From positions 1 to 63,673 of the forward strand of contig JAGXOG010000001.1 of NCBI GenBank assembly GCA_023660015.1: a DNA stretch of 63,673 bases, written 5' to 3'. The notes beneath the pieces are model-generated. The model made no database searches and was not told where the DNA came from. It worked only from the letters and a program-made list of their open reading frames with translations. Shown here one piece after another: positions 6,001 through 55,199 of this stretch. The position numbers and the translations under genes are program-made. Source of the DNA: Elusimicrobia bacterium LH_S2. GTDB taxonomy: Bacteria > CG03 > SLGR01 > JAGXOG01. Every line of letters begins with the position of its first letter. Positions within the stretch are counted from its first letter, which is position 1.

Positions 6001-9000
6001 CCACCGACAAATGCTTCCGGATTTTCCGGCTCACCTTCTACTAATACATGGAGTGGCTCTTCAAATTTAAATGTAAAATGGATTGCCGGTTCTGATGAGT
6101 TATCAGGACTTTCAGGATATTCTGTAAAATGGGATACTCAGACAGCAACCACTCCTGACGATGCTGTGGATACCACTGATTCAGATACTTCCGATTCAAC
6201 TAAAGATACTTTTACAAGCGACAACTGGTATTTTCATATTGTAGCGGTAGATAATGCCGGGAATGTAAGTGGTGCGGAACATTACGGTCCTTACTGGCTC
6301 GATTATATTAATCCTTCAACTGCAACTTTGACAGCATCGGACGGAACGGGCAACGATGTTGATTTAAGCTGGACTTTTGCCAGTGATACAGATTCGGGGG
6401 TAAGTAAATACAGGTTATACCGGGCTACAAAGACAATAACGGAAAGCAACAAGGATGCTTCCTATGTTACCGAACTTTCTACATTTTCAATCGCAGAGAG
6501 TTCTCATACGGATACAACTACGGTTTCAGGGACAGATTATTATTACTGTTTGGAAATTATAGACAAAGTTGACAATACAAATCTTTCAAATAATGAAAAT
6601 ATACAAGCGGGCTATAATGTTTTGGATGTTTGGCATAAGCCCACTACGCAAGTTCCGGCAAAATCGGTAGATTACAGAAATCCATCGTCGCCGGAGGATA
6701 CAGATTGGGTAGAAATTTGGATAGGAGCAGCCAGCCGGTATGAATTAAGCTATGCTACATTATATTATACCACAAACGATAAAGAACCTGACGAGGATTC
6801 ATCTTCCCGGAATCTTTCCTGGGACCATGATGACAGCGGAAAGTCATTTTTTGTTACTGATTCCAGTATTCCTGCCCAGTCAGACGGCATAACTGTAAAA
6901 TATATGATAAAGTGCGGTACAACTTCGACCACTATGGATGACACATATATCTATTCGGACGGTTCCGGCGGATATGAAAAATACGGTGATATGTCGGGCA
7001 TCCCGTTTTCCTATATCATAGGATGGGGAGTTTCAATAGTAGGGCAATACGACACGGGTGGGACTGAAATTGCTTACGAATCTTGGACAAATTGTACGCG
7101 GCCTGTACTAAAGATTGACCAGACCCCTCCTTCAGTCGGTGTTAATATGTGCTTCCGACTCCAGATTGATGATACCGACAATACTTTTGCCACTCCCGAG
7201 ATGGATATAAAAACGGGATATATAGAAGCCGGAACCGTAACCTATACCGTCGGCCAGGACGCAGATGTTGCGTATCCGACGGCTACCTATAAATCCGGAC
7301 ACGAGGGTATGACCCTTGGAGAAGACGACAGCTATTACTGGCGGGTAATATCTTCCGAAGCGTCTTCGGGTAATTCTTCGCCATGGGTCAAGGCAAACGG
7401 CGGGGACATAGCATTTAAGATAGATATTAATAATCCTTCTAAGCCCACGAATGTAAGTGCGCTTCAAGCTTCAAATAGCTCAGCAGATGTTGACTTAACC
7501 TGGTCAGCAGCAACCGATTCTCAAAGCGGAGTTGCCGGTTATATCATTTATCGTTCAACTTATAGTTTTTCAAATGAAGCAAATGCAACAGAAATAGCAA
7601 GCGATATAACAGGAACTTCATATACTGATTCATCAACTGATCATGATGCCCATTATTACTATTCTGTTAAAGCATATGATAATGCCGGAAATTATGGGTT
7701 ATTATCTACAAATGCCGAGGTTGATACTTCAAAGAAACTGATTGATGGAGATAAAGGCGACTGGACAGGTACTCCATCTGATAAAGTTAATTCTGCTGTT
7801 ATATCAAACGGAGAGTGGATATGGACAGATAAACGGTGGGAAAGGCGAGAGGATTCCCCTGAGAATGACGATGTGGATATTAAGGAACTTAGAATAGATG
7901 CAGATGCTGATAATTTATATTTTTTAGTTGAGTTTGAAAATATTACTGACACTCTCTATCCTAATCTTGCTATAAGTATAGATACAAGCAGAGATGGAAG
8001 TGGGATGGACTGGCTTGGCGATGATTCAGGAGTAACTCTGGGCGATGATTATTATGGATTTCTTGCTAATGGCGAAAGAAATATAGTAGTTCACCACACA
8101 AACGATACACCTGCATGGCAGATAGAATTATATGCTGATGATGGGTCATCATGGTATGCTCCACCTACACTTGGAGCAGGGCGTATAAATTGCAATATAG
8201 TAAATTTTGTTGAGTTTAAAATTACAAAAAGTGATTTGAATATTCCATCGGGAGAGACAACATTCAGAATTACCGCAACCTCTTTTTATCAGGACCAGGA
8301 TGATACCGACGGCAGTGGAGATGGAGACAACAACTGGTGGGCAAATGATGATGATTTAACAGATGATTTAACAGATGATACCACATACGATGCTCTTGAT
8401 TCTATGTCGGTTATTCCGATTTCTACGGGCTCCGGGGCCGGTCAGTATTACAATGACAAAGACCTTACTATGAGTTCCTGGGATGAGGATATCTCCGACG
8501 GGAATATAGATTTCTGGGCGGATATTTACATATCACCTCTATTTGAAATTGAAAACGAACTTCCGGAAGAGGTCGATACCCCCTATCCTCCGGATAAGGG
8601 AGAGGTTAGTAAACCTGCGCCGACTTTAACTTTTGTCTCTAACGGAGACCTTGACGACGAAGTCGGTGACGCCATTACTTCGTACCTGCTTGAGCTTTCT
8701 ACATTTTCAGATGATTTATCAGGTGATGTAACTTACAGGGTCAATCTTGATACCACAAGCTGGCCGGTTCCCGATGATCTTAAACTGGGGGTAAATAATT
8801 ACTGGAGGGTAAGCGCCCGGGACAAAAGGGGAGCTCTGAGCTCTGCTTCCACATGGACTTTTAAGTGCACCGCTGCAAATGATTCGCCCTATGGGCCCGC
8901 AACGGTAGATTTATACGGCTGGGCAACAAGTGATTTTACCGATTCTACCCCTGAAAGTGCGGATGATCTCCAGGCACAGGTTTCGCTGTCCGACCCTGCG

Positions 9001-23628: not shown

Positions 23629-23696
23629 TTGTTAAAAAAGAAGTGATACAAATCAGAGGAAAAAGGAGAAGTGTAGAGTATTTAACTAAATGAGAA

Positions 23697-23753
23697 TTAC
23701 ACGATTAGTATTAAAATTACACGATTAATTACACGATTTGTCTCTACACGATT
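23697..23753 (+). repeat. Cluster of four direct (T/C)TACACGATT repeats (iteron-like / protein-binding-site-like)
   Basis: TTACACGATT occurs at 23697, 23717 and 23729, and CTACACGATT at 23744. A degenerate TACATGATT and two AATGTCA(T/C)GA(G/A)AAT repeats lie just downstream. Confidence 0.6.
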
Positions 23754-23871
23754 AGCGAGATTTTTACATAATTAGTACATGATTTTCAATGTCATGAGAA
23801 TACTAAAATGTCACGAAATAAAGAATCACCCAAGAGCGTAAGTTTAAAATTGAATTTATTCAGTAGCACTT

Positions 23872-24103
23872 TGATCTTCCCCGCTAAAAGTGGACATAAC
23901 AAAGAGTAAATGGTAGGATAGTCATAAGCTCAAAAGAGGTGTCCGATGGAAAGAGGGAAGATGAAGCGGTTTAACAAGGGATTTAAGGTCTTAACGGTAA
24001 AAATAGTTACCCAAGGGGGCATAGCGCAACTGAGGTAGCAAATAGATTAGGGATAGACCGCAGATTGGTATATAACTGGATATCGACAATATTATCGCTG
24101 TAA
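23872..24103 (+). pseudogene. IS3-family insertion sequence remnant: left inverted repeat plus frameshifted, truncated orfA (HTH) fragment
   Basis: TGATCTTCCCCGCTAAAAGTGGACA at 23872 resembles IS3-type terminal IRs. The ATG at 23946 encodes MERGKMKRFNKGFKVLTVKIVTQGG and stops at 24036. After a shift at the G5 run (24015-24019) the next frame reads HSATEVANRLGIDRRLVYNWI, a typical IS3 OrfA HTH. No transposase catalytic part follows. Confidence 0.6.
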
Positions 24104-24116
24104 GTAATTTAATTTT

Positions 24117-24277
24117 AGGAATTGTCCCGGATTTGTTGGATATGATAAATGATTTTGTAAAGAGCATATTCTTTGTCTGAAGGTTCTTCTTTTGCCCGTA
24201 GGGCTCACAAAAGCCATGCTTAAAACTCAAAATGCTTTCTTTACATTAGTTTATCCATTTCTTTTGGGCCAATGTCG
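24117..24277 (+). mobile_element. MITE-like repeat, type B, internally deleted copy; flanked by AATTTT on both sides
   Basis: The left arm AGGAATTGTCCCGGATTTGTTGGATATGATAAATGATTTTGTAAAGAGCA and the right end CATTTCTTTTGGGCCAATGTCG match the copies at 30731 and 43071. The central hairpin region is missing. AATTTT lies at 24111-24116 and 24278-24283. Confidence 0.7.
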
Positions 24278-30158: not shown

Positions 30159-30608
30159 TTGAAGATGACTGTATCTAAAAACCGCAAGGCATATTATCAG
30201 TACGATATAATTGAAGAGATAGAGGCCGGAATAAAACTTACCGGCGCAGAGGTTAAATCCATAAGAGACCACAGAGTGGACATAAAACACAGTTACGCTC
30301 GAATTATTGACGGCGAAGCTTATCTTATAAATACTCATATTAATCCGTATAAAGAGTCTTCTGACGAGTATTACAATCCCAAAAGAGACCGCAAGCTTCT
30401 TTTAAAAAAGAAAGAGTTAAAGTCATTAAAGAAAAAAATAGAAAGCAAAGGGGTTACGCTCGTTCCACTTAAGATATATTTTAAAAGGGGTTGGGCAAAA
30501 GTCCGGCTCGGCGTAGCCCGGGGAAAGACAAAAAAAGATAAGAGAGACACCCTTAAAAGAAAAGTAACGGAGAGGGAAATGGACAGGGAACGCAAGAAAT
30601 ATATTTGA
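30159..30608 (+). CDS. smpB: SsrA-binding protein SmpB
   Basis: KNRKAYYQYDIIEEIEAGIKLTGAEVKSIR....LLLKKKELKSL...GVTLVPLKIYFKRGWAKVRLGVARGK is the canonical SmpB sequence. Confidence 0.9.
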   Translation: MKMTVSKNRKAYYQYDIIEEIEAGIKLTGAEVKSIRDHRVDIKHSYARIIDGEAYLINTHINPYKESSDEYYNPKRDRKLLLKKKELKSLKKKIESKGVTLVPLKIYFKRGWAKVRLGVARGKTKKDKRDTLKRKVTEREMDRERKKYI

Positions 30609-30730
30609 CACCGGCATATTTTAATTGTAGAATCATTGTATCATTTCCAAAAGTATAAAAATCTAAAAAACCGTTAATCACTCTTAAACAAATGCTCCGC
30701 AGGAAAAATATTTCGTGATTACTTAATTTT

Positions 30731-31229
30731 AGGAATTATCCCGAAGTTGTTGGATATGATAAATAATTTGGTTTTTTCGTAAATATAGTGCAGTTATCGT
30801 TTGAAAGTTGTTTTAAGTTGCAAAAAGTATTTATTCGTTACAATAGTCCTTTTGCCTTTGGCAGACAAAAGTCAGTCCTAAATCTCAAAAACTCACCTGA
30901 CTTATCGTCAGGTTCAAACAGTTTGAGCTTTTTTTAAAGAACCGAACTGCCTTTTAATAGGAAGACTAAGTCACTAAAATATTTTTGCAACATAAATACG
31001 AAAGAACCAATAATTTTGTAAAGAGCACATTCTTCGTCTATAGGTTCTCCTTTTGCCCGTAGGGCTCACAAAAGTCATGCTTAAAACTCAAAAACTACTC
31101 GTCATAGTGACGAGTTCAGACAAATTGGGGTTTTTCCTCTTAAGGAATCGGCATACCTTTTGATAGAAGGACAAAGTCGCTAAAATGACTTTTTATATCA
31201 GTTTACCCATTACTTTTGGGATAATGTCT
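30731..31229 (+). mobile_element. MITE-like repeat, type B, full-length copy interrupted by a nested related element; flanked by AATTTT
   Basis: The termini are AGGAATTATCCC...GGGATAATGTCT (inverted repeat). AATTTT lies at 30725-30730 and 31230-31235. The left arm is split after 30768 by the element at 30769-31009. Confidence 0.75.
30769..31009 (+). mobile_element. Nested MITE-like element (third subtype: related core, different termini TGGTT...AACCA) with 6-bp target duplication ATAATT
   Basis: The intact copy at 43071 reads GATAAATAATTTTGTAAAG. Here it is GATAA-ATAATT-[TGGTTTTTTCG...CGAAAGAACCA]-ATAATT-TTGTAAAG, with the duplication at 30763-30768 and 31010-31015. Confidence 0.75.
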
Positions 31230-31283
31230 AATTTTATATACCGCAATAAAATAACTAAACAATTATATTGATTAATTTTAAAA

Positions 31284-37429: not shown

Positions 37430-37461
37430 TTGTATCGGAATTTTAATAATTACGATACAAT

Positions 37462-37780
37462 GATTAGGGATAAAGCGAGTGTGCTACGCCTGTGAAACAA
37501 CCATTTAGGTTGTTTCTCCGAGCTGCTTCGCAAGGGAAAGAATCTGCTTTCCCTTATGGGGTGACAGTGGAAGAATTGCCTAAATGGCATTTCTGGAACG
37601 CCAGAGGGATGAGGTCGTGAACGCTGGCATAGGCCAGGAGGTGTGAGCGACCGAATAAAAAACAATGTATGCTCGGGCTGAAAAACATCCATTTAGGATA
37701 TTTTTCCGGGCGCCCTCGCCCCTATGGAAGTTACGCACCAAAGGTGCGCTAACTTATATCCGGAATATTTTTTCAGTATG
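37462..37780 (+). promoter_or_regulatory. Candidate structured cis-regulatory leader RNA (riboswitch-like, class not identified) upstream of the nucleoside transporter
   Basis: The 376-nt non-coding gap is conspicuously more GC-rich than its surroundings. It has at least six hairpins: 37494-37516, 37532-37555, 37569-37594, 37613-37652 (enclosing 37624-37637), 37680-37706 and 37729-37754. A long-range helix CCGAGC/GCUCGG pairs 37518-37523 with 37671-37676. A U-run at 37766-37773 lies close to the RBS. Confidence 0.55.
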
Positions 37781-37806
37781 AAGTTTAAAAAAAGGAGTTA
37801 AATAAT

Positions 37807-40822: not shown

Positions 40823-40956
40823 TATAATATTAAACTCTCATTATGATATACGTAAATAGCAGTAAATATTTTCTTTTTCAAAGAAGTAAGCGCATCCTGA
40901 AAAGCAGAAAGAGTTTCTTGCTCAAAAAAATCAGTGGCAAAGGAAGAATAAAATTT

Positions 40957-41210
40957 AGGCATCGTCTCAAAAGTAATGGATATATGAGAAATAGTTTTGC
41001 AAAGAGTTCCTTTTTCTGCTCCGGTTGTTTTTTTGCTTTCAGCACGCAGAAGTCACGCTTGAAACTCAAAAACTCACTCGTCATATTGACGAGTTCAGAG
41101 AGTTTGAGTTCCTTCCTAACGGAACCAGCATGACTTTTGACAGGAGAACAAAGTCGTTCAAAAGAGATTCTTTACATAAAAGCCAATCCATTAACTTTGG
41201 GATAACGTCT
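40957..41210 (+). mobile_element. MITE-like repeat, type A, full-length copy
   Basis: Near-palindromic 254-bp element with termini AGGCATCGTCTC...GGGATAACGTCT and a central hairpin ACTCGTCA-TAT-TGACGAGT. It differs from the copy at 50981-51234 only by scattered substitutions. Confidence 0.8.
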
Positions 41211-41250: not shown

Positions 41251-42153
41251 ATGAGAATAATTAAATATGATGACATAATGTCAGCAAAGAATCAGGGTAG
41301 AAAAAAGGTTGTGGCACATTCCGCAAGTTTAGTATCACCGTATGCGCGGGAAACTGCCCTGAGATTTGGAATAGAGATAGTTGAAAATTTAAGTATTAAA
41401 AGAGAGGAAAATAATATGAGAAAACCTTTTATTGCCGGCAACTGGAAGATGAATAAAACCAACAGAGAGACCGTAAAACTTTTAAATAATTTAAAGCCAT
41501 TGGTTAGTGACGCGGGCGACGTAGATATAATGGTGGCCCCCCCGTATACTTCACTAACCCTGGCCGCTGAGATATTAACAGATAACAATATAATGCTCGG
41601 TGCTCAGAATATGCACCAGGAAGAAAGTAGCGCATATACAGGAGAGATAACAGCTGATATGCTCATTGAGGCCGGCTGTAGTTGGGTCATACTCGGACAT
41701 TCCGAGCGCAGAAAATATTTTGGGTGTAGTGATGAGCTGGTTAATAAAAAATTAAAAAAAGCTCTCAGTAAAGGCCTTAATCCCATAGTCTGCGTCGGCG
41801 AGCAACTGGAGGAGCGTGAGGCCGGAAATACTTTTGAAATCCTCCGCCGGCAGGTTACAGAAGGGCTAAAAGAGATAAATGACCCGGTTACCATAGCTTA
41901 TGAACCTGTATGGGCCATAGGAACAGGGAAGACCGCTTCTCCCGAACAGGCCGATGACGCCCATAAATTTATAAGGGAGATGTTGGCTGATATTTACAAC
42001 CCTGAAATAGCGGAGGATATAAGAATACTCTACGGTGGAAGTGTTAAACCCACAAATATATCCGAGCTTATGGCAAAAAAGAATATTGATGGAGGGCTTA
42101 TAGGCGGGGCAAGCCTAAATGCAGAGAGTTTCTCTCAGATAGTGAAGTTCTAA
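41251..42153 (+). CDS. tpiA: Triosephosphate isomerase with a 55-aa N-terminal extension (alternative internal start at 41416)
   Basis: From residue 56 the sequence is RKPFIAGNWKMN...GHSERR...AYEPVWAIGTG...GGASL, a canonical TPI. An SD-like GAGAGGA lies 7 nt upstream of the internal ATG at 41416. Confidence 0.9.
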   Translation: MRIIKYDDIMSAKNQGRKKVVAHSASLVSPYARETALRFGIEIVENLSIKREENNMRKPFIAGNWKMNKTNRETVKLLNNLKPLVSDAGDVDIMVAPPYTSLTLAAEILTDNNIMLGAQNMHQEESSAYTGEITADMLIEAGCSWVILGHSERRKYFGCSDELVNKKLKKALSKGLNPIVCVGEQLEEREAGNTFEILRRQVTEGLKEINDPVTIAYEPVWAIGTGKTASPEQADDAHKFIREMLADIYNPEIAEDIRILYGGSVKPTNISELMAKKNIDGGLIGGASLNAESFSQIVKF

Positions 42154-42166
42154 GGAAAATACTGAA

Positions 42167-42787
42167 TTGACAGATACCTCACAAATAGCAGGAGAAATAT
42201 TAATAAGGCTCGAGCGTTCATCGAGGCCTATTATATGTAATGTCTCCAACCGGCATATTCATATATCAAAAGATATACTCGAAAAACTTTTTGGTGAAGG
42301 ATATAGTTTAAAAAAAGCCAAGGAGCTTATGCAGCCCGGACAGTATGCATCGACGGCAAAAATTACTCTTAAAGGTCCCAAGGGAACTTTAACCGGAGTA
42401 AGGATTTTAGGCCCGGTAAGAGAAAATACGCAGATTGAGATATCCAGAACTGACTGTTATACACTGGGAATTAATGCTCCGCTGCGAAGTTCCGGAGATT
42501 TGCAGGGAAGTCCCGGAGCAAGGATTATAGGTTCGTCCGGGTCGGCGCAGTTGTCGGAAGGCATAATAGTGGCCCAGAGACATATACATATGACCCCTGC
42601 GGACGCTTCTTTTTTCAAAGTTAAAAATAAGCAGAAAGTAAGGGTAAGAACGAGGCCCCCTCGCTCGGTTGTTTTTGAAGATATGCTGATAAGGGTCAGT
42701 GAAAATTATTGTCTGGAGTGCCATATAGATACCGATGAAGCCAACAGCTGTGATTTTAAAAGTTCAGATGAAGTATTTTTAAGCTGA
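42167..42787 (+). CDS. pduL: Phosphate acyltransferase PduL (BMC-associated phosphotransacylase)
   Basis: It has a duplicated PduL half-domain: NVSNRHIHIS...ILGP.R..TQIEISRTD and AQRHIHMTP...CHIDTDEAN. TTG start. Confidence 0.9.
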   Translation: MTDTSQIAGEILIRLERSSRPIICNVSNRHIHISKDILEKLFGEGYSLKKAKELMQPGQYASTAKITLKGPKGTLTGVRILGPVRENTQIEISRTDCYTLGINAPLRSSGDLQGSPGARIIGSSGSAQLSEGIIVAQRHIHMTPADASFFKVKNKQKVRVRTRPPRSVVFEDMLIRVSENYCLECHIDTDEANSCDFKSSDEVFLS

Positions 42788-42788
42788 T

Positions 42789-43106
42789 ATGTCCTCGATC
42801 GGAATGATAGAAACAAAAGGAATGATTGCGATGGTCGAAGCGGCTGATGCAATGGTGAAATCCGCCGATGTAAAGATTATGGGACAAATAAAAAGATACG
42901 GGGGAGGGTTGGTGACTGTAATTGTGGCCGGAGAGGTTGCCGCCTGCCGGGCCGCCTGTGAAGTAGGCAGTGTCGCTGCCCAAAAAGTCGGAGAGCTTGT
43001 AGCAGTCCATGTTATACCCCGGCCGCATGATGAATTAAGTTCAAAATTATCAGTATTAGAAAAAAATTTTAGGAATTATTCCGGATCTGTCAGATATGAT
43101 AAATAA
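42789..43106 (+). CDS. BMC-H shell protein (Pfam00936 type) with repeat-derived C-terminal tail
   Basis: SIGMIETKGMIAMVEAADAMVKSADVKI...[13 protein letters not shown] is canonical BMC-H. The last 12 or so codons and the stop lie inside the MITE-like element that starts at 43071. Confidence 0.85.
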   Translation: MSSIGMIETKGMIAMVEAADAMVKSADVKIMGQIKRYGGGLVTVIVAGEVAACRAACEVGSVAAQKVGELVAVHVIPRPHDELSSKLSVLEKNFRNYSGSVRYDK

Positions 43107-43303
43107 TTTTGTAAAGAGCAGATTCTTTATCTATAGGTTCTCCTTTTGCCCGCAGGGCTCACAAAAGCTATGCTTAAAACTAAAAATTACTCGTCATAGA
43201 AACGAGTTCAGACAATTTAAATTTTTTCTTCTTAAAGAACCGGCATACTTTTGACAGAAGGACAAAGTTACTCAAAATGCACTCTTTACATGGAACAATG
43301 TTA
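43071..43303 (+). mobile_element. MITE-like repeat, type B copy with partly deleted right arm; flanked by AATTTT
   Basis: It aligns with 30731-31229 minus the nested element. AATTTT lies at 43065-43070 and 43304-43309. It sits between two BMC-H genes. Confidence 0.75.
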
Positions 43304-43329
43304 AATTTTAAGAAAGGAAACAATAACTT

Positions 43330-43596
43330 ATGGAAGCACTCGGACTTATAGAAACCAGAGGCCTTGTCGGGGTAATAGAGGCAGCGGATGTAATGGTAAA
43401 GACCGCGTCTGTAAAGATAGTTGGTTTTGAAAAATCGGGCGATGGTATAGTAACCGTAAAAATCAGGGGCCCGGTGGCAGATTGCCGGGTAGCGGTAGAT
43501 GCGGCTGTATCGGCAGCCGGGAAAGTGTCGGAACTTTTATCAGCGCATCTTATACCATTGCCGTTTCCTGATTTAGAAGAGAACTTAAATATATAA
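43330..43596 (+). CDS. BMC-H shell protein
   Basis: EALGLIETRGLVGVIEAADVMVKTASVKIVG...SAHLIP is a canonical single Pfam00936 domain. Confidence 0.9.
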   Translation: MEALGLIETRGLVGVIEAADVMVKTASVKIVGFEKSGDGIVTVKIRGPVADCRVAVDAAVSAAGKVSELLSAHLIPLPFPDLEENLNI

Positions 43597-43623
43597 AGAG
43601 ACAAAAAAAAGAGGTAATATAAT

Positions 43624-43929
43624 ATGCAATTTGGAATTATAACGGGGAATGTTGTTTGCACCACAAAAGATGAAAAAATAGAAGGAAGAAAATTACTGCT
43701 GGTTCAGCCAGTAAATGATGAGTTTAAACCGGAAGGAACCGGGCTGGTGGGTATAGACTCGGTAGGTGCCGGGGAGGGTGAACTCGTACTTTATGTGACC
43801 GGTTCTTCTTCAAGGATGACCGATATTACCGATAACCGTCCTGTAGACTGCACTATAATGGCTATTGTGGATTATGTCAGCAAGAACGATAAGATAATAT
43901 TTGAAAAGTTTAAAGAAGGTCGGGAGTAA
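43624..43929 (+). CDS. BMC-P pentameric vertex protein (EutN/CcmL family)
   Basis: MQFGIITGNVVCTTKDEKIEGRKLLLVQPV....GIDSVGAGEGELVLYVTGSS is the EutN/CcmL pattern. Confidence 0.9.
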   Translation: MQFGIITGNVVCTTKDEKIEGRKLLLVQPVNDEFKPEGTGLVGIDSVGAGEGELVLYVTGSSSRMTDITDNRPVDCTIMAIVDYVSKNDKIIFEKFKEGRE

Positions 43930-43965
43930 AATAAAAATTTTTAAAACCATAATCGGAGGTATTAA

Positions 43966-45381
43966 ATGGATATAAACAAAGAAGAAGTTTCAAAGATAGT
44001 GCGTGAAGTTGTTTCAAGGCTTGAACAAGACGGGCCTGTCTCTTCGCCGTCCGCCGGTGGGTCGGTATTATATGAAACTATGCCTGAGGCAATTGCGGCG
44101 GCAAAATCTGCTCAGGAAAAATTTAAGGGTATGGGGTTGGAATTACGGCGGAAAGTCATAGAAGCTATGCGGGTAGCAGCAAGGGAGCAGGCCGAGACCC
44201 TGGCTAAATCAGCCGCCGCTGAAACAGGAATGGGCAGGTGGGAAGATAAAATAAAGAAAAATCTTTTGGCTGCCGATAAGACTCCCGGTGTAGAAGACCT
44301 TCAGCCGGTAGCTTATACCGGAGATCGGGGGCTAACACTGATAGAGAATGCTCCTTTCGGAGTTATAGGAGCGGTTGCCCCGTCCACAAATCCAACCTCT
44401 ACTGTTATAAATAATGCAATAAGCATAATTGCGGCGGGAAACGCTGTAGTATTTGCTCCGCATCCGGCGGCGAAAAAATCTTCCCAGGAAGCCATGAAAT
44501 GTCTCTCCGGTGCAATAAAATCAGCCGGCGCTCCAGCAGACCTTATAACCGCTATGAGTGACCCCAGCCTGGAAGGCGCACAGATTTTATTTACAGATGA
44601 AGATATAAAAGTACTTCTGGTTACCGGAGGCCCTGCCGTAGTAGCGGCAGCCATGAAAAGCGATAAAAAGATTATCGCCGCAGGCCCGGGAAATCCTCCT
44701 GTGGTAGTTGATGAAACTGCGAATATTAAAAATACCGTAGATTCAGTTATAGATGGAGCAAGTTTTGATAACGGGGCGCTTTGCACCGCAGAAAAAGAAG
44801 TTCTTCTTACAGACGATGCATATGAAGGGGTGATTACAGAAATGCGGGGAAGAAGCGATGTCTACGAGCTTACTTCCGGACAGATGGATAAACTGGCCGA
44901 TATGGTTATTGCCAAATCGGGCAAGGGGGGGGAAGGTTTGATGAACAAAGACTATGTCGGAAAAGACGCTGTTTTTATTGCCAAAGCAATAGGTTTAAAT
45001 ATCCCCCCGGAGGCACGGCTCTTATGGGGCATTGTAGATAAAGAAAATGATTTTATGTGGACCGAACAGCTTATGCCCGTTCTTCCTTTTGCAAAGACAG
45101 GCACTATAGATGATACGATAGAGCTTGCCGTCCGGATGGAAGGGGGAAACGGCCATACGGCTATTATGCATTCATTAAATGTAGAACATCTTACAACTAT
45201 GGCCAGAAAAGGGGCCTGCTCTATTTTTGTTAAAAACGGGCCGTCTTTTATGGGCCTGGGGATGGGTGAAGGCTACGGCGCTCTCTCTATTGCTACTCCT
45301 ACTGGTGACGGCCTTGTAAAAGCGAGTAATTTTACACGGCCTTTAAGGTGCGTGCTGGTAGATTATTTCAGGATAGCTTAG
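43966..45381 (+). CDS. CoA-acylating aldehyde dehydrogenase (EutE/PduP-like) with N-terminal encapsulation-peptide-like helix
   Basis: The region around the catalytic Cys is FDNGALCTAEKE, on an ALDH fold. The N-terminus EEVSKIVREVVSRLEQ is an amphipathic helix followed by a linker. Confidence 0.9.
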   Translation: MDINKEEVSKIVREVVSRLEQDGPVSSPSAGGSVLYETMPEAIAAAKSAQEKFKGMGLELRRKVIEAMRVAAREQAETLAKSAAAETGMGRWEDKIKKNLLAADKTPGVEDLQPVAYTGDRGLTLIENAPFGVIGAVAPSTNPTSTVINNAISIIAAGNAVVFAPHPAAKKSSQEAMKCLSGAIKSAGAPADLITAMSDPSLEGAQILFTDEDIKVLLVTGGPAVVAAAMKSDKKIIAAGPGNPPVVVDETANIKNTVDSVIDGASFDNGALCTAEKEVLLTDDAYEGVITEMRGRSDVYELTSGQMDKLADMVIAKSGKGGEGLMNKDYVGKDAVFIAKAIGLNIPPEARLLWGIVDKENDFMWTEQLMPVLPFAKTGTIDDTIELAVRMEGGNGHTAIMHSLNVEHLTTMARKGACSIFVKNGPSFMGLGMGEGYGALSIATPTGDGLVKASNFTRPLRCVLVDYFRIA

Positions 45382-46706
45382 TGAACAGGGAAGAGATATT
45401 AAATAAAATAATGGATGCCGGGATAGTCGGTGCCGGCGGAGCGGGTTTTCCGTCACATCTTAAAGTATCGGCTGACGTGGATACAGTAATTGCTAACGGC
45501 GCAGAATGCGAACCTCTGCTTTCTACGGACAAGTACCTTATGGAGACAAAAGCCCGCGAAATAGCCGAAGGGTTAAGGCTGATAAAACAGACTACCGGCG
45601 CGAAAAATCTTTATATTGCATTAAAGAAAAAATATAAAAAAGCTGTAGATGCTTTTAATTCTGTTCTCGGTTCGTCTTCGGATATAGAACTCATACTTCT
45701 TGAAAATTATTATCCGGCCGGCGATGAATTTGAGTTGGTATATGATATTACCGAGAGGCTCATCCCGGAAGGCGGTATTCCCCTTAATGTGGGGGTTGTG
45801 GTCACCAATGTCAATACAATATTAAATATATACTTGGCGGTAACTAAACAGCAACCGGGGACTACCCGCTGGGTTACGGTCGCCGGCAACCTGAAAGAGC
45901 CGTATCTTACCGAAGTCCCGGTTGGAATAAAAATCGGGGAGCTGATAAATAAAGCAAAACCAATTGCCGAAGATTATAAAATAGTAGCCGGGGGCCCGAT
46001 GACCGGAGAGATAGTTGATGAAAATTTCAGGGTGACAAAACTTGACGGCGGGGTGCTTGTCCTTCCTGAAGATAACCCGGTCATAGCTAAAAAGATGAGG
46101 ACTTTGCGGTCCTGGGAAAAGATAGGAAAATCTACCTGTGACCAGTGTTTTGATTGTTCAATTGTCTGCCCCCGGAATCTTTTAGGCCATGACCTGGAGC
46201 CGCACAAGATGATGAGGAATCTTTTTATAGATCCTGAAAATTCGCCGGTAGAGATAACAAATTCATATCTCTGCAGCAACTGCGGCCTCTGTGACATGTT
46301 TGCCTGTCCTTTAGGTCTTTCTCCCCGGGCGCTGCTTCAGCAGGCAGCGGCCGAACTTACACAGGATGGGATAAATTCGCCCCATAACCGGACAGAATTA
46401 GAGCCCCATCCGGAAAGAGATTTCAGAAGGGTAAGCACAGACAGGCTCACTGCCCGGCTGGATATAGAAAAGTATGAGATAAACGGAGATTACAGAATTA
46501 AAAAGATAAAAACTTCCAAAGTTATGATACCTTTAAAACAGCATATAGGAGCGCCGGCCGCCGCTGTAGTTAAAAAAGGAGATAAAGTTAAAAAGGGGGA
46601 TCTTATAGCTTCTGTACCTGAAAAAGAAATAGGGGCAAACATACATGCAAGTATTGACGGAACAGTAGCCGGGATAAGAAATGAAAATATTGAAATTAAA
46701 GGATAG
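45381..46706 (+). CDS. PduS/RnfC-like flavo-iron-sulfur protein (two 4Fe-4S motifs, C-terminal RnfC-type barrel-sandwich domain)
   Basis: It contains GIVGAGGAGFPSHLKV, CDQCFDCSIVCP and CSNCGLCDMFACP. A GTG at 45381 overlaps the upstream TAG (TAGTG) with AGGA 7 nt upstream; the track ORF opens at 45348. Confidence 0.8.
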   Translation: MNREEILNKIMDAGIVGAGGAGFPSHLKVSADVDTVIANGAECEPLLSTDKYLMETKAREIAEGLRLIKQTTGAKNLYIALKKKYKKAVDAFNSVLGSSSDIELILLENYYPAGDEFELVYDITERLIPEGGIPLNVGVVVTNVNTILNIYLAVTKQQPGTTRWVTVAGNLKEPYLTEVPVGIKIGELINKAKPIAEDYKIVAGGPMTGEIVDENFRVTKLDGGVLVLPEDNPVIAKKMRTLRSWEKIGKSTCDQCFDCSIVCPRNLLGHDLEPHKMMRNLFIDPENSPVEITNSYLCSNCGLCDMFACPLGLSPRALLQQAAAELTQDGINSPHNRTELEPHPERDFRRVSTDRLTARLDIEKYEINGDYRIKKIKTSKVMIPLKQHIGAPAAAVVKKGDKVKKGDLIASVPEKEIGANIHASIDGTVAGIRNENIEIKG

Positions 46707-46715
46707 GTGATATAG

Positions 46716-47267
46716 ATGAAAAATGCAATTGGTTTAATTGAGTTAAACAGCATAGCCAAAGGTTTTGAAATCACGGATGCTCTTTTAAAGACAGCCGAAA
46801 GCCGGTTGGTGGAAGCTCATTCGGTCTGCCCGGGTAAATTTATCGTTCTTATTACCGGGACTACGGCCGATGTGCAAAGTTCGCTGCAGTCCGGGTTGGA
46901 TATTGCCGCCGATGCTTTTATTGATAAACTTATGATACCTAATATTCACCAGGATTTGGTATCGGCATTAAGAGGGATTACGGCAGTTTCCGAACTGGAA
47001 GCCCTGGGCATTATAGAAACATTTTCTGCGGCTTCGGCCATAATCGCAGCCGACGCGGCGGCAAAAAAAGCTATGGTTAAACTTATTGATATACGGCTGG
47101 CTAATGCTTTGGGAGGCAAAGCTTATCTTACCTTGACCGGGGAAGTAGGAGCAGTTCGCTCGGCGGTAAATGCAGGCAGCAACGCGGTAAAAGTTGCCGA
47201 AGGTATATTAATACGGCGAATTGTTATACCGCGCCCTCACAAGGATTTAAGAAAGAGCGTACTTTAG
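46716..47267 (+). CDS. BMC-T tandem-domain shell protein, PduT-like (Cys38 conserved)
   Basis: There are two Pfam00936-like halves (AIGLIELNSIAKG... and ALGIIETFSAASA...) in 183 aa. A Cys at residue 38 (HSVCPGKF, codon 46827-46829) occupies the position of the PduT 4Fe-4S ligand. Confidence 0.8.
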   Translation: MKNAIGLIELNSIAKGFEITDALLKTAESRLVEAHSVCPGKFIVLITGTTADVQSSLQSGLDIAADAFIDKLMIPNIHQDLVSALRGITAVSELEALGIIETFSAASAIIAADAAAKKAMVKLIDIRLANALGGKAYLTLTGEVGAVRSAVNAGSNAVKVAEGILIRRIVIPRPHKDLRKSVL

Positions 47268-47278
47268 GGAGAAAGATT

Positions 47279-47728
47279 ATGGATATTGTAATTGGTTCAG
47301 ATCACGGCGGCTTTAAATTAAAAGAAGAGATAAAAATATATCTTCAGGATAGAGGGTATAACATTGTTGATTTCGGCACTTATGAGGAAGAATCCTGCGA
47401 TTATCCCGATTATGCGCTTTTAGTAGCCCAAGCTATATTGGACGGGGAATATAAAAAAGGTATTTTATTTGACGGTACCGGGGGAGGAGTATGTCTTACT
47501 GCTAATAAAGTTAAGGGGGTGCGGGCGGTAACTGCTTACAACCGCTTGACCGGAAGCTATGCCTCCGAGCATGATGACTGTAATGTCTTATGTCTGGGAG
47601 GAAAGATGCTCGGGGAACTTGTCGCCAGGGATATAGTCGATGCCTGGTTGGATACTCCGTTCGGCGAGGGGCGCCACCAGAGAAGATTAAATAAGGTGGA
47701 GGATGTGGAAGAGAAATATTTTAAGTAA
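47279..47728 (+). CDS. RpiB/LacA/LacB-family sugar-phosphate isomerase, variant with Asp at the catalytic Cys position
   Basis: IGSDHGGFKLK...GILFDGTGGGVCLTANKVKGVRAV...GEGRHQRRL. The codon at 47471-47473 is GAC, where RpiB normally has the Cys of the ICGTG motif. Confidence 0.8.
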   Translation: MDIVIGSDHGGFKLKEEIKIYLQDRGYNIVDFGTYEEESCDYPDYALLVAQAILDGEYKKGILFDGTGGGVCLTANKVKGVRAVTAYNRLTGSYASEHDDCNVLCLGGKMLGELVARDIVDAWLDTPFGEGRHQRRLNKVEDVEEKYFK

Positions 47729-47789
47729 ACAACGATGAATAGAACTACAGTACCGGCGACATTATTATCTTAGTCTGCTTGTTATGAGG

Positions 47790-47810
47790 TGCCGGCATTT
47801 CCTGCCGGCA
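47790..47810 (+). other. Perfect 8-bp stem hairpin (TGCCGGCA-TTTCC-TGCCGGCA) in the spacer between the two rpiB paralogs
   Basis: It is read directly from the sequence. The stem is GC-rich, sits in an AT-rich 130-nt spacer and has no following U-run. Confidence 0.5.
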
Positions 47811-47858
47811 AATCTGAGAATAAATATTGTCAGTACTGTTTCTACGGAGAATTTTTAG

Positions 47859-48302
47859 ATGAAAATTGCAATTGGGTCAGATCACAGAGGATTTCAATTA
47901 AAAAGAGGACTTAAAAATTTGCTCAATAAGATAGGGCATGAGACAGAAGATATGGGGCCGGATACGGAGGATTCCGTAGATTATCCCATATATGCTAAAA
48001 AAGTCGCCGACAGCGTCTCGTCGGGAAAAACCGTCAAAGGGATAGTTATATGCGGAAGCGGTATCGGGGCATCTATAGCTTCAAATAAAGTTAAAGGTAT
48101 AAGGGCAACTCTTTCCCGCTCTATAAATGATGCTCAAATGGGAGTAAGGCATAATAATGCAAATATTCTTTGCCTGGGAGCGGATGTAACTTCCGGAAAA
48201 AAAGCCGCAAAGATAGTAAGAGAATTTTTAAAAGCAGAATTTGAAGGCGGTAGGCATCAAAGGAGAGTAGATATTATTACTAAAATAGAGGAAGGAAGAT
48301 GA
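47859..48302 (+). CDS. rpiB: Ribose-5-phosphate isomerase B (canonical Cys-type RpiB)
   Basis: IGSDHRGFQLK...GIVICGSGIGASIASNKVKGIRA...EGGRHQRRV. Confidence 0.85.
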   Translation: MKIAIGSDHRGFQLKRGLKNLLNKIGHETEDMGPDTEDSVDYPIYAKKVADSVSSGKTVKGIVICGSGIGASIASNKVKGIRATLSRSINDAQMGVRHNNANILCLGADVTSGKKAAKIVREFLKAEFEGGRHQRRVDIITKIEEGR

Positions 48303-48604
48303 AAGCGGCAAAAGTAGTCGGACGGGTTACGGCCACAACAAAGTATAAAACAATGGAAGGTAAAAAAATCCTTCTTTTAAGACCTCTATCTTGGAGAGAA
48401 GCCGCTCAGGCCTTCCGTTTAAAAGGTAAAGACCTTGCGCCGGAACCCAAAAAATCAATTATCGCTCTTGACTCGGTAGGGGCGGGAGCTTCGGAATATA
48501 TTTTTTATGTTTCTTCAAAAGAAGCTTGCCAGGCTTTTGACAATGACGCTATATGTAATTATGCTGTAATCGGGATACTTGACGGGGTGGATATAAAAGA
48601 GTGA
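48299..48604 (+). CDS. BMC-P pentameric vertex protein (EutN/CcmL family), paralog 2
   Basis: MKAAKVVGRVTATTKYKTMEGKKILLLRPL...ALDSVGAGASEYIFYVSS. The start overlaps the rpiB stop (ATGA). Confidence 0.85.
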   Translation: MKAAKVVGRVTATTKYKTMEGKKILLLRPLSWREAAQAFRLKGKDLAPEPKKSIIALDSVGAGASEYIFYVSSKEACQAFDNDAICNYAVIGILDGVDIKE

Positions 48605-48748
48605 GATAACCATGAATTATTACCAGCAGAAAAGAATTAAAATTAAATCTGTCGGCAGCATTTGTTTTCTCATTCTCGCTACGCTCCGAGGTCGCAAACA
48701 GCTGAATCCGGAGATGAATACCGTCGGTATATTTGGGAGCATTTGTAG

Positions 48749-49042
48749 ATGAAAGTTGCAAAAGTCATAGGTAATGCCTGGGCTACCAGAAAACATCCGA
48801 TTTTAGAGTCAAAAAAACTTTTAATAGTTGAGCCGGTAGACGAAACTACCGCCGTGCCCAACGGGGAACCCTTATTGGCCATTGATTCGGCCGGTGCAGG
48901 TGTGGGGGATACCGTACTGGTGCTGGACGAAGGGACCTCGTGCAGGCAGATAGTGGGTGTGGACCATGCTCCGACCCGGACTATAATAATCGGGATTGTA
49001 GATGAAACTTATAAAAAAGGCAAAAAGAGAAGTTATCATTAA
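48749..49042 (+). CDS. BMC-P pentameric vertex protein (EutN/CcmL family), paralog 3
   Basis: [30 protein letters not shown]...[19 protein letters not shown]. Confidence 0.85.
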
Positions 49043-49065
49043 TTAATAAAAATAAGGAGGAAAAA

Positions 49066-50472
49066 GTGCAGGAGAGTTATATAAAAAAAATTACTGCAGA
49101 AACAATGAACCGTCTGGAGAGTAAAAGAGGGGGTAAACGGGAACTCCTTTTGATATTTATGGGTGGAGACCGCGAAGTTGACGAATCGCTAAACCAGGTA
49201 AAATGTTTAAACGAAATGGGAATAAAATTTTCTGCTTACCTGACCGGTTCCGCTGACCGTATAATCGGCCGCAGCAGAGTTATGGCTGCCGGGGTAGAGA
49301 GAGTAATTGATGAAAGCGAAATATGGGACCGGGGGATACTTGACAAGTATGAAGCCATTATAATTCCGGTTTTGACCTTAAACGGAACGTCTAAGATAGC
49401 CAATATGGTAGCCGATAATCCTGCAAGTAACATAATCCTGCTTGCTTTAAGGCACGAGAAAAAGGTAATTATAGCCCGGGACTCGGTTATAAGCGGCGGA
49501 GGACCACAGCCGCCGGCTACCTCCGCGTTTATGAGAAATGTCAATGAGATGATAAATAAGATTAAAAATTTAGGAGCGACGGTAACAGTGGCTAAAAATT
49601 TAGCCCGACGGATTACGGAAGTATTAAATATATCTGCCCGGCCGGTTTCCGGAAACGCGGTCTCTGTAAACTCTTCGCCTCCTGCAGAAATGCCATGCGG
49701 GGGGGATGTATCTGCATGTGTTGAATGCGGTTTATGTGTGGTAAACCGCACTGAAGATGTTAAGAATATAGTTAATGCCGGGGCAAGTCGAGTATCTGCA
49801 AAGCAGGTAACGGAGGATATAGGAAATGATTTGGCCAAATATATAGATCATACGGATCTTAAGGCTGAGACTACCACAGAAGCTATAGGAAAACTTTGCG
49901 AAGAGGCAAAAGAATATCACTTTGCAACTGTCTGTGTAAATCCGGTTAACGTAAAGACCGCGGCCCAGCTTTTAAAAGGCAGCGGTGTCAGGGTCACTAC
50001 TGTTATAGGTTTCCCGCTGGGGGCCACTACTCCCACGGTAAAAGCATTGGAGGCAAGAGATGCAATAGCCAACGGTGCTGATGAGATAGATATGGTAATA
50101 AATGTCGGAGCCTTAAAAGGCGGAAATTACCGCCTGGTCGAGGACGATATAAAAGCCGTTCGGGAAGCTACAAGGGGTAAAGTCCTTAAAGTAATTTTAG
50201 AGACCTCTCTTTTAGATAACGACCAGATAGTGAAGGATTGTCAGATTTCAAAATCCGCAGGTGCTGATTTTGTTAAAACTTCTACGGGATTCGGTCCCGG
50301 TGGTGCAACCGAAGAAGATGTAAGCTTAATGAGAAAAACAGTAGGTCCGTCCATGGGGGTTAAAGCGGCGGGAGGCATACATTCGGAAGAAGAGGCCGAA
50401 GGCATGGTTAAGGCCGGGGCTTCCCGCATAGGCGCGTCGGCTTCGGTAGCCATAGTTACCGGCGGCGAATAG
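49066..50472 (+). CDS. deoC: Fusion protein: encapsulation-peptide-like helix + flavoprotein-like domain + CxxCxxC motif + deoxyribose-phosphate aldolase (DERA/DeoC)
   Basis: The C-terminal 230 aa or so read DHTDLK...ATVCVNP...IGFPLG...IDMVINVG...LKVILET...[10 protein letters not shown]...VKAAGGI, which is canonical DeoC. The N-terminus has [21 protein letters not shown] (flavoprotein-family-like) and [16 protein letters not shown]. Confidence 0.85.
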
Positions 50473-50550
50473 GAGAGCAATTATTAATAGGTATTTTTAG
50501 TTTATCGGAAATTTGGTAAAGATTGTAAAGAAGTATAAGGAGGAATAAAA

Positions 50551-50838
50551 ATGGCAGAAGCTAAACAAGCTTTAGGTATGATTGAAACTATAGGTCTTGT
50601 AGGTATGATTGAAGCCTCGGATGCTATGGTTAAGGCAGCAAAGGTTGACCTGGCCGGTTATGAGAAAATAGGCCAGGGTTATGTAACGACGATGGTTAGA
50701 GGTGAAGTAGGGGCAGTTAGGGCCGCGGTCGAGGCGGGTTCTACCGCAGCGCAAAAAGTCGGCGAATTAGTCAGCGTTCACGTGATTCCCAGGCCTCACG
50801 AAGATATAGAAAGTATTCTCCCTCAGGGTAACAAATAA
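50551..50838 (+). CDS. BMC-H shell protein (strong AAGGAGG RBS; likely the major shell hexamer)
   Basis: [28 protein letters not shown]...[14 protein letters not shown]. An AAGGAGG lies 7 nt upstream of the ATG. Confidence 0.9.
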
Positions 50839-50980: not shown

Positions 50981-51234
50981 TGGTATCGTACCAAAAATAA
51001 TGGATATATGAAAAATAGTTTTGCAAAGAGTCCCTTTTTTTACTCCGGTTGTTCTTTTGCTTTCAGCACGCAGAAGTCACGCTTGAAACTCAAAAACTTA
51101 CTCGTCATATTAACGAGCTCAAAGAATTTGAGTTCCTTCATAGCGGAACCAGCATGACTTTTGACAGGAGAACAAAGTTGTTCAAAAGAAACTCTTTGCA
51201 TAAAAGCCAGCCTATTAACTTTGGGACAACGTCA
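50981..51234 (+). mobile_element. MITE-like repeat, type A, full-length copy flanked by 6-bp direct repeat ATAGTT
   Basis: It aligns end to end with 40957-41210. ATAGTT lies at 50975-50980 and 51235-51240. Confidence 0.8.
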
Positions 51235-53192: not shown

Positions 53193-55199
53193 ATGGCTTT
53201 AAAAAATTATGCTATAGAGCCGGCTCCCAGTCCAAAAGACAAGAACCGGTATAAGTTAAGCATAGCCGGTTCCGAAAAAGATGTAAATAAGCTGGTTAAA
53301 CAGTTAAGCAGTATAAGCAGCCGGCCTTTTCCTTCTCCGGACGATAAATACGGATGGTCTCTTTTTTTGTATAACTTAAAAGAAAGTGCTAAAAATAAAA
53401 TAACCAGCGAACTTGACAAGGTTATAAAAAATAAAAAAAATATCCCAGCCGAAAAACAGAAAAAATCGCGGGATGTTAAAAGTAAATCTACCTCCTCCGG
53501 TAATAATATTTTGTACAGGAGCGAGTTAAAAAAGGATTATACCTTTGATAAATTTATAGTGGGAGCCAATACGCGATTTACTTATGCGGCCTGTAAGGCC
53601 GTCGCAAACAAACCGGGCAAAAACTATAACCCGCTCTTTATATACGGCGGTGTAGGCCTTGGAAAAACCCATCTTATACAGGCGATAGGTCACCATGTAA
53701 AAGAAAATTTTTCGGAGATGAAAATAGAATATATTGCTTGCAGCAAATTTATAAATGAAGTAGTGGCGGCCATTGAAAAAGGAACTATAAATCTATTAAG
53801 AAATAAATTTAAAAATGTAGATTTACTCCTTATAGATGACATAGAGTTTCTTGAACAGTCAGAGTCAACCCAGGAAGAATTTTTTAACATATTTAATGAA
53901 ATGCACGAGGTAGAAAAGCAGATAGTCATTACATCGGATAAACCCCCCAAGAAACTGGTTACCCTTGAGGACCGGTTGAAATCCAGGTTTGAATGGGGGC
54001 TGACGACCGATGTGAAATCCCCCAATTTTGAAACCAGAAAGGCAATACTTAAGAAGAAAGCCGCGGAAGCTAACTTGGAGCTATCGGACCAGATTAATGA
54101 TTTTATTGCCGAAAGGCTGACTTCCAATATCAGAGAGCTAGAAGGAATAATAAACAGGATAGTCGCATACCAGGAACTTTCCGAAGACAATATACAGATA
54201 AATATAAGTATTGTTAAAAATATAATGCGAAATATCCTTCCTGAAGAAGAGAAGGAAGAAGAAAGCCGCCCGGAAAAAGAAAATTCAACAACCGGAGCCC
54301 GCCAGGGGGAAGGCCGAAAGGCGGCCCAATATCCCGGTTACAACCCGCCACCGCCGGTTCCCGGATACCAGCAACAGCAGTACGGAAATAACTGTCCCCG
54401 GTGCAGAAGTCCACTGCGATATATTCCCCAGTTTAAGAGGTGGTATTGCGATAACTGCGGCGTCTATACAGACCCGGCGCCCGGCGCGCCGCTTCCGCCG
54501 GGAAATTATACCGGAGATTATCCGCAGCCGTCTCCATCCCCGCCGCCCCCGCCTCCGTCAAAGTCTCAAACCGCTGCTTCAAGGCCGTGTCCCAACTGTA
54601 GCGCGGAGCTTAAATATATAGATGAATATGACCAGTATTACTGTCCAAACTGTAAAAAATACGAGCAGGAGTTACTCGAAGAAAATGACACTCCGCGAAA
54701 AACTAAGAGTAAAGAAAAGGCGCCGGAGCCGAAGAAGCCTTCTTCAAAGGATTCAAAAGACAAAGAAGAAAATATTGAAGATATTATAATAGGAGAGAAA
54801 AAAGAAGACACCAGGGTTATTAAGGCCGGTTATTTTATCGCCGAAGGAGACCAGAAATTAGCAATAGATATAGCAAACAGGTTAAGTAAGATTGCCCGGC
54901 GCAAAAATATAAAGTTCTATCTGAAAACTCATTTTGCTCATTTTTATCCTAAAAAAGCAAAGTTAAATTATGCGAAGTTTGCCCATATAACTAAAAATAA
55001 CAATGCAGACATTGTTTTATGTCTTGAACCGCCTTCTAATGGTAAGACTGCCCCCGAGGAGTTTAAAGAAGAATTAAGCGCCGCTCTGGATAAAGAAAAC
55101 CTTCCCTATGCCTTTTTGCCCCAGAAGAAGATGAAGGACAGCGATGCGTTAAATTTAATGCTGGATATAGCTATATGCGCAAAGAAAAGAACTAAATAA
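53193..55199 (+). CDS. DnaA-derived AAA+ ATPase lacking DnaA domains I and IV; Pro-rich region with two zinc ribbons and a novel C-terminal module
   Basis: The full DnaA domain III signature is present: YTFDKFIVGANTRFTYAA, NPLFIYGGVGLGKTHL (Walker A), LLLIDDIEFL (Walker B), QIVITSDKPP, RLKSRFEWGL and SNIRELEG. No ..PRQ.AMYL...GGRDHTTV domain IV is present. Instead it has CPRCRSPLRYIPQFKRWYCDNCGVY and CPNCSAELKYIDEYDQYYCPNCKKY. Confidence 0.8.
   Translation: MALKNYAIEPAPSPKDKNRYKLSIAGSEKDVNKLVKQLSSISSRPFPSPDDKYGWSLFLYNLKESAKNKITSELDKVIKNKKNIPAEKQKKSRDVKSKSTSSGNNILYRSELKKDYTFDKFIVGANTRFTYAACKAVANKPGKNYNPLFIYGGVGLGKTHLIQAIGHHVKENFSEMKIEYIACSKFINEVVAAIEKGTINLLRNKFKNVDLLLIDDIEFLEQSESTQEEFFNIFNEMHEVEKQIVITSDKPPKKLVTLEDRLKSRFEWGLTTDVKSPNFETRKAILKKKAAEANLELSDQINDFIAERLTSNIRELEGIINRIVAYQELSEDNIQINISIVKNIMRNILPEEEKEEESRPEKENSTTGARQGEGRKAAQYPGYNPPPPVPGYQQQQYGNNCPRCRSPLRYIPQFKRWYCDNCGVYTDPAPGAPLPPGNYTGDYPQPSPSPPPPPPSKSQTAASRPCPNCSAELKYIDEYDQYYCPNCKKYEQELLEENDTPRKTKSKEKAPEPKKPSSKDSKDKEENIEDIIIGEKKEDTRVIKAGYFIAEGDQKLAIDIANRLSKIARRKNIKFYLKTHFAHFYPKKAKLNYAKFAHITKNNNADIVLCLEPPSNGKTAPEEFKEELSAALDKENLPYAFLPQKKMKDSDALNLMLDIAICAKKRTK

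Follow-up and report, generated by a model that had tools for sequence, protein, structure and literature searches.

A MITE family with uniformly oriented copies in an uncultured Elusimicrobiota bacterium and in a second, unrelated host

Results

Genes and repeat elements of the window

The window, meaning the whole stretch of DNA that was analysed, is an entire NCBI contig of 63,673 bp from an uncultured Elusimicrobiota bacterium. The genome is 93% coding, and the intergenic DNA of the window amounts to 4.6 kb in total. Every long ORF is located on the plus strand, and the GC skew is positive throughout (+0.05 to +0.25). A single ORF of 4398 aa (118-13314) takes up a fifth of the window. The region 41251-50838 is a sugar-phosphate-type microcompartment locus, syntenic in at least four Elusimicrobiota MAGs, with genes for TIM, a PduL-like PTAC, five BMC-domain and three EutN proteins, an aldehyde dehydrogenase, an RnfC/Nuo51-like flavoprotein, two RpiB paralogues and a DeoC-family aldolase fused to a flavoprotein domain. 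At 53193-55199, a 668-aa protein with a DnaA-type ATPase domain is encoded, which is far longer than DnaA; in relatives, a protein of 697-710 aa is found at the same position.

A segment of about 330 nt at 37455-37790, between a 5'-nucleotidase-like gene and a nucleoside transporter, is GC-richer than its surroundings; the corresponding gap in syntenic relatives is 54-92 nt long. Its predicted fold is stable on the plus strand (-120 kcal/mol, z -5.5) and on the minus strand (-110 kcal/mol, z -5.4), and it contains three small hairpins with a common CC-AUUUA-GG loop motif. No Rfam match was found for it at E <= 5. The segment could be an unfamiliar structured RNA or a different mobile element.

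A repeat search of the window returned a 255-nt pair, A1 and A2, with 90% identity, and five more repeat families. Seven related pieces were identified and assigned to subfamily A (two copies and a fragment), subfamily B (three copies) and subfamily C (one copy, inside a B copy):

40957-41210, plus strand: A1, MITE of 254 bp, with a GGDEF gene on one side and the TIM-PTAC-BMC operon on the other
50981-51234, plus strand: A2, MITE of 254 bp, with ATAGTT at both flanks
23574 to about 23633, plus strand: A fragment, an A-type left arm alone
30731-31229, plus strand: B1, MITE with about 252 bp of its own sequence, split by C, in the smpB-polA spacer
43071-43303, plus strand: B2, MITE of 233 bp, right arm partly missing
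24117-24277, plus strand: B3, MITE of 161 bp, flanked by AATTTT, truncating an IS3-family remnant
30769-31009, plus strand: C, MITE of 241 bp, nested in the left arm of B1

An initial annotation, made from the sequence alone, had described seven such pieces, and the repeat search, the reading of the sequence and an nhmmer profile agree with it on both number and coordinates. The profile, built from the five full copies, retrieved just these seven pieces in the window, with E-values between 1.7e-79 and 4.8e-6, and placed all of them on the plus strand. Since A1 scores 262 bits on the plus strand and 25 bits on the minus strand, the orientation of the elements is well defined. Their lengths range from 161 to 254 bp, and the flanks of different copies are unrelated to one another. 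The window has six intergenic gaps of more than 250 nt, and elements occupy five of them.

The ORFs of the elements do not exceed 70 aa, A1 and A2 each contain one of 65-70 aa, and no Pfam family was matched in any of them, which agrees with the earlier statement that the copies lack a transposase. An autonomous element with the ends of the family was not found in the window either. The DNA between the A fragment and B3 (23634-24116) is a junkyard of mobile DNA in which the motif TACACGATT occurs four times (23699-23763) and an IS3-family left end, TGATCTTCCCCGC..., starts at 23872. A frameshifted orfA remnant at 23946-24100 (PF01527, 28 bits), truncated by B3, is the sole transposase trace in the window. 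The IS3 remnant was rejected as the parent element because its end is unlike the MITE ends (p > 0.07).

Structure of the elements

The terminal inverted repeats are about 27 nt long and imperfect: the arms of A1 have 27 nt and are 74% complementary, those of C have 25 nt and are 80% complementary. A and B share the end consensus TTAGRNRTTRTCCCAAARGTAATGG, and the same ends are carried by the D and E copies of the second host described below. C has different, unrelated termini, written TGGTTYTTTCGTA... or TGGTTYTTTCGTAWATAT..., and the two end types of the family can be written as GGNATYRTCCCAAARGTAATGG and GGTTYTTTCGTAWATAT. The common terminal inverted repeats proposed in the initial annotation are therefore real and alike in A and B, but they do not extend to C. 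About 140 nt in the middle of C are homologous to A and B; its arms are unrelated to theirs (40-56% identity). The simplest origin of C would be a nested insertion followed by an internal deletion.

Comparison across the copies bore out the proposed shared core and the three subtypes. The core has a length of about 55 nt and is the best-conserved segment across the subfamilies, with identities of 77-81% between A and B and of 66-73% between A/B and C:

41059-41111: core of A1, with an A-run, an 8-bp hairpin (41076-41094) and TTTGAG
51100-51118: equivalent core hairpin of A2
31097-31115: equivalent core hairpin of B1
43189-43207: equivalent core hairpin of B2
30895-30913: equivalent core hairpin of C

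In B3, an internal deletion has taken away the core hairpin as well as the inner portion of the right side. Three of the eight stem pairs of C differ from those of A and B, each in a compensatory manner; the core hairpin is borne by two unrelated pairs of ends and has been kept through these changes.

As a whole, A1 folds as a long hairpin either way, with -72 kcal/mol (z -4.1) and -75.6 kcal/mol (z -4.6). Rfam gave no match in the window at gathering thresholds and none over A1 at E <= 1, and no sequence relatives of the elements were matched in plasmids, phages or viral contigs. A Rho/rut composition asymmetry was ruled out because the base composition of the elements is strand-symmetric.

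Target duplications

The flanking 6-bp direct repeats that had been reported (ATAGTT, ATAATT and, three times, AATTTT) are present as described and are exact in A2, B1, B2, B3 and C. The duplications vary among the copies and agree within each copy. Of nine copies, seven have an identical 6-bp core of the duplication, and 13 of the 16 outer positions agree, where the rate expected by chance is 0.26 (P = 7e-6). Because the outer positions match as well, the target duplication has a length of 8 bp rather than 6 bp. In this reading, five copies match at all eight positions and two at seven of eight, and the element ends become GG...(T/C)C. B1 is flanked by TAATTTTA at 30724-30731 and 31229-31236, C by AATAATTT (8/8) and B2 by AAATTTTA (8/8). 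AATTTT belongs to the host target and not to the element, as it occurs a single time in the relative L009, where the B2 site is empty.

Two other readings of the junctions were rejected. At the C site, the inserted length is 247 nt, and symmetric ends are obtained only with a duplication of 4, 6 or 8 bp; a TA duplication of the Correia/IS630 type gives asymmetric ends. A 6-bp duplication with the A/T belonging to the ends was discarded in favour of the 8-bp reading.

No intact target duplication was found for A1 (3/6). To the left of this copy, about 130 nt (40823-40954) have no counterpart in the 53-76-nt GGDEF-TIM spacer of the relatives. The extra DNA and the missing duplication suggest a rearrangement or a second, unrecognised insert.

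Empty sites and assembly checks

The nested copy provides an empty site within the window. AATAATTT occurs singly in B2 and B3, which read GATAAATAATTTTGTAAAG, and B1 has C and a second AATAATTT at this point. Since B2 and B3 run straight through the C site, its empty state has been kept in paralogous copies. The host sites were compared with those of syntenic Elusimicrobiota relatives (GCA_964476445.1, GCA_027858455.1, GCA_051745145.1 and JGI 3300051636), which have about 68% nucleotide and 70-88% protein identity to the window:

GGDEF-TIM gap: 53-76 nt in the relatives, 428 nt in the window
BMC-BMC gap: 2-5 nt or overlapping genes in the relatives, 259 nt in the window
last BMC gene to next gene: 87-89 nt in the relatives, 412 nt in the window
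smpB-polA gap: 154-155 nt in the relatives, 675 nt in the window

This comparison, which the initial annotation had suggested, found all four host sites empty in the relatives, in addition to the C site that is empty in B2 and B3. The empty B1 site in L013 reads TATTTTTA, and nhmmer detected no family members in 64 kb of the syntenic relatives.

The earlier concern that the repeats might be assembly artefacts did not hold. Across the left B1/C junction and across B2, Logan contigs of SRR14170927 reproduce the sequence of the window exactly; the independent assemblies agree at every base, and two of them run across B2. B2 is also found, at the identical position, in a second strain represented by the independent MAG GCA_023659635.1 (98.0% identity over 7.7 kb). 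Short-read contigs end inside A1, A2 and C. One of them, the Logan contig L001, ends at 30808, 40 nt into C, and the window holds no second copy of this sequence, which hints at more C-type copies, or at polymorphism, elsewhere in the sample.

No filled/empty difference was seen between the window strain and GCA_023659635.1, and B2 is fixed in both. Whereas the two strains differ by 2%, divergence within the subfamilies is 10-17%; the insertions observed are accordingly old, with no sign of recent activity.

Transcriptional context

Several copies adjoin or interrupt features of host gene expression:

30605-30633, plus strand: promoter-like TTGACA-17-TAGAAT at the end of smpB, conserved in L013, L014 and L015
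41219-41248, plus strand: TTGACT-17-TATAAAT directly to the right of A1, conserved in L009, L011 and L012
42789-43106: gene for a BMC shell protein whose C-terminal tail consists of 11 B2-encoded residues, RNYSGSVRYDK

As the first of these promoters lies upstream of B1 and C, the polA-coaE-rho transcript must cross about 500 nt of element. The second is likely the promoter of the BMC operon, and the right end of A1 is located 8 nt upstream of the conserved -35 box. A2 lies between a terminator-like site that closes the BMC operon and the RBS of the gene at 51251, 10 nt upstream of the following start codon. B2 is inserted within the BMC operon, in the final codons of the shell gene starting at 42789, and the RBS of the next gene is intact. 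Native tails of this shell protein in relatives read ...EYFNLRKKG and ...REFFKDK, and the chimera with the MITE-encoded tail is also found in GCA_023659635.1, with one residue different. The placement of three copies in or beside the BMC locus, as initially proposed, is thus correct.

The initial annotation had further proposed that the copies are co-transcribed as long RNA hairpins. From their positions, co-transcription with host genes can fairly be assumed for four copies (B1, C, B2 and A2). The second part of the proposal fared less well, since no selection on the hairpin was seen: 24 arm mismatches are of the type that gives G.U on the plus strand and 25 of the type that gives G.U on the minus strand. 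With G.U-type mismatches balanced between the strands, RNA-level selection on the arm structure is not supported, and the palindromy seems to be a property of the DNA itself.

A second host

A profile of the 65-70-aa ORF of A1 and A2 was searched against 1.84 billion representative proteins and returned two short "proteins" that are translated element copies. They are encoded on contigs from the JGI metagenomes 3300033153 and 3300033148, which belong to an unrelated metagenomic bacterium and have no genes in common with the window. Three copies were identified there, D1, D2 and E1 (nhmmer E-values of 2e-47, 2e-40 and 4e-35), one of which was recovered by the DNA profile alone. They have 68-73% identity to A and 82-89% among themselves, and their 8-bp duplications are AATTATTA (8/8), TAAAAATA (8/8) and AAGTATTT/AAATATTT (7/8). 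The presence of D1, D2 and E1 in an unrelated bacterium means that the family is not confined to one species. Its density is seven pieces per 63.7 kb in the window and three more per 19.6 kb in the other organism.

Other searches returned no further members. The left-arm pattern gave two chance matches in 185,579 species genomes, a set evidently without GCA_023659635.1, whose B2 carries the pattern. The hairpin pattern gave two chance matches of 24 nt in the JGI metagenomes and none in the viral collection, and a chimeric six-frame "protein" of all elements had no match among 5.8 billion proteins.

Two observations concern the surroundings of D2. Directly downstream of it (L017, 8274-8420), the motif CTGCGGGTTTACACCCGCAG and its relative GGCTTACGCCCGCAG recur and may represent another small repeat. 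The gene call of 174 aa on the minus strand that overlaps D2 is probably spurious.

Orientation of the elements

The claimed co-orientation of the copies with the genes was confirmed by nhmmer for all seven pieces of the window. D1, D2 and E1 are likewise all co-oriented with their flanking genes, which brings the count to 10 of 10 in the two hosts, and the orientation bias is real. In the second host, the co-oriented strand is G-rich as well (GC skew +0.12 and +0.10). Because the genes and the leading strand coincide, transcription and replication are indistinguishable as the cause of the orientation. The best guess is that purifying selection acts against the opposite orientation in transcribed spacers. 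A coupling of target and element orientation was considered and is broken by the D2 duplication AAAAAT.

Discussion

The elements of the window are a new MITE family of a known kind. They are non-coding and small, well below the size limit of about 600 bp for MITEs, have inverted ends, are flanked by duplications that vary from copy to copy, and are dispersed among unrelated flanks at sites that are empty in orthologous positions; one copy is nested in another, and none has a transposase. The non-autonomous, MITE-like nature ascribed to them in the initial annotation is thereby confirmed. The 8-bp duplication and the GG ends would point to an enzyme of the ISL3, IS6, IS256 or IS1595 type. According to the ISfinder family table, these insertion-sequence families duplicate 8 bp and have ends that begin with GG; AT-rich targets are a further feature in common with the present family. 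This assignment is a lead.

A DDE-type transposase encoded elsewhere and acting in trans would bind both ends of an element. Cuts staggered by 8 bp would be made in AT-rich targets such as TAATTTTA, AAATTTTA, AATAATTT, AATTATTA and TAAAAATA, the element would be joined in, and gap repair would produce the 8-bp direct repeats. In a genome that is 93% coding, insertions persist almost only in the few spacers. Two have struck mobile DNA of another kind (B1, hit by C, and the IS3 remnant, hit by B3), and B2 has entered dispensable last codons of the shell-protein gene. Most copies would be passengers that are read through by host transcription. The overall account, in which the MITEs would be mobilised in trans and transcribed as passengers, with their orientation kept by purifying selection, is assigned a probability of about 0.75.

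The alternatives mainly concern the orientation. It is conceivable, though unlikely, that the elements are MITEs whose orientation is set at insertion by the replication fork or by one template strand, with transcription being irrelevant. Replication-fork- or strand-coupled insertion is exemplified by Tn7 with TnsE and by IS200/IS605-type elements. In both hosts the co-oriented strand is G-rich and presumably the leading strand, all ten copies follow it, and no orientation-sensitive transcriptional feature was confirmed, all of which speaks for this explanation. However, two similar inverted ends combined with a symmetric 8-bp duplication typically go with DDE enzymes, most of which insert their elements either way round. 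Moreover, all neighbouring genes lie on the same strand in both hosts, so replication is not favoured over transcription as the cause.

Selection by the host for the core of about 55 nt, be it as an antisense-strand terminator or insulator, a structured RNA or a protein-binding site, is rather improbable, although such a module, moved about by the inverted repeats, would account for the conservation of the core and the orientation alike and several features fit it. The core is the most conserved segment across the subfamilies, in contrast to the divergent arms of C, and the changed pairs of the C stem are all compensatory. On the minus strand, 5-6 T follow the hairpin in 8/8 copies, and the 53-nt core is more stable as minus-strand RNA in 7/8 copies. 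This strand difference fades against shuffled sequences, where the z-score is lower on the minus strand in five copies and on the plus strand in two, with one tie, and D2 and E1 have a weak hairpin (z -0.05 to -2.0). A permissive terminator scan reports the core hairpin with T5 on the minus strand in all five full copies, but it operates near background, with 23 hits per 20 kb compared with 15-20 in shuffles. By a d'Aubenton-Carafa-type score, 8/8 copies come out negative whichever strand is taken, with C scoring better on the plus strand, whereas the terminator-like site at the end of the BMC operon reaches +6.5. B and C have T-runs after the outer stem on the plus strand too, and Rfam is without a match even at the relaxed E-value applied to A1. 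Finally, a shared core with different ends also fits a nested insertion with subsequent deletion, and nesting is directly seen. Background rates, d-scores and z-scores together weaken an antisense terminator as the cause of the orientation.

An active basis of the orientation in a wider sense has a small chance of being correct, comparable to that of an orientation set at insertion: it would be either a fork-strand-specific transposase or a mobile functional core that blocks antisense transcription in one-way genomes. Fork-specific insertion, if true, would be out of the ordinary, given the inverted ends and the duplication of 8 bp.

That the co-orientation is a sampling accident among a few randomly oriented MITEs is very improbable. 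The window has just seven pieces, the pattern was spotted post hoc, and the two-sided p for 7/7 is 0.016; yet the three copies of the second host agree, and for 10/10 the two-sided p falls to about 0.002. That the repeats are no transposons at all, but assembly artefacts, recombination-spread repeats or single-strand elements of the PATE (IS200/IS605-derived) or REP/BIME type, can practically be dismissed: short-read contigs do break within A1, A2 and C, but independent assemblies agree to the base and span B2 twice, the copies have unrelated flanks, their duplications vary from one copy to the next and match within each, and PATE and REP elements, characterised by subterminal hairpins or by palindromic units of 20-40 nt, lack inverted ends and leave no duplication behind.

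With purifying selection on trans-mobilised passengers as the preferred account, the family can be set beside known systems. Bacterial MITEs, as reviewed in PMC10969869, are likewise small and non-coding, with inverted repeats and duplications, intergenic positions, nesting and long hairpins, but the orientation bias of the present family is unusually complete, and no sequence relationship to a described family emerged from the collections searched. The Correia elements of Neisseria are also near-palindromic and intergenic, are often co-transcribed with their neighbours and can adjoin promoters; they measure 100-155 bp and duplicate TA, in contrast to the 210-255 bp and the 8-bp duplication found here. 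ERIC/IRU elements of Enterobacteria and Yersinia are imperfect palindromes in transcribed spacers too, for which orientation-dependent mRNA effects have been described (summarised in PMC3049150). They are about 127 bp long and differ in hosts and sequence, and for the present family no orientation-dependent feature has been demonstrated.

The pneumococcal repeats BOX, RUP and SPRITE (PMC3049150) resemble the situation in the window in that several small families cluster in spacers and insert into one another. BOX is modular, SPRITE has a terminator-like module, and the orientation of these repeats mirrors the coding strand (PMC3049150). About 60-63% of them follow the coding bias, compared with 10 of 10 copies here, and in contrast to the SPRITE module the present core is sub-threshold under the stricter score. 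Correia, ERIC, BIME, BOX, RUP and SPRITE are the analogues for functional side-effects (PMC3049150, PMC10969869).

Conclusions

MITEs are the least catalogued mobile elements of uncultured phyla. The family described here accounts for most of the non-coding DNA of a compact Elusimicrobiota contig and explains the break points of the short-read assemblies of this lineage. It has altered host genes, as the shell protein received a new C-terminal tail, the polA-coaE-rho leader was extended by about 500 nt, and A1 was placed against the likely promoter of the microcompartment operon. Apart from its co-orientation, the family is an ordinary bacterial repeat. The complete co-orientation in two hosts makes it a small, clean test case, in which it could be seen if transcription or, instead, replication controls how palindromic repeats are oriented under extreme gene-strand bias.
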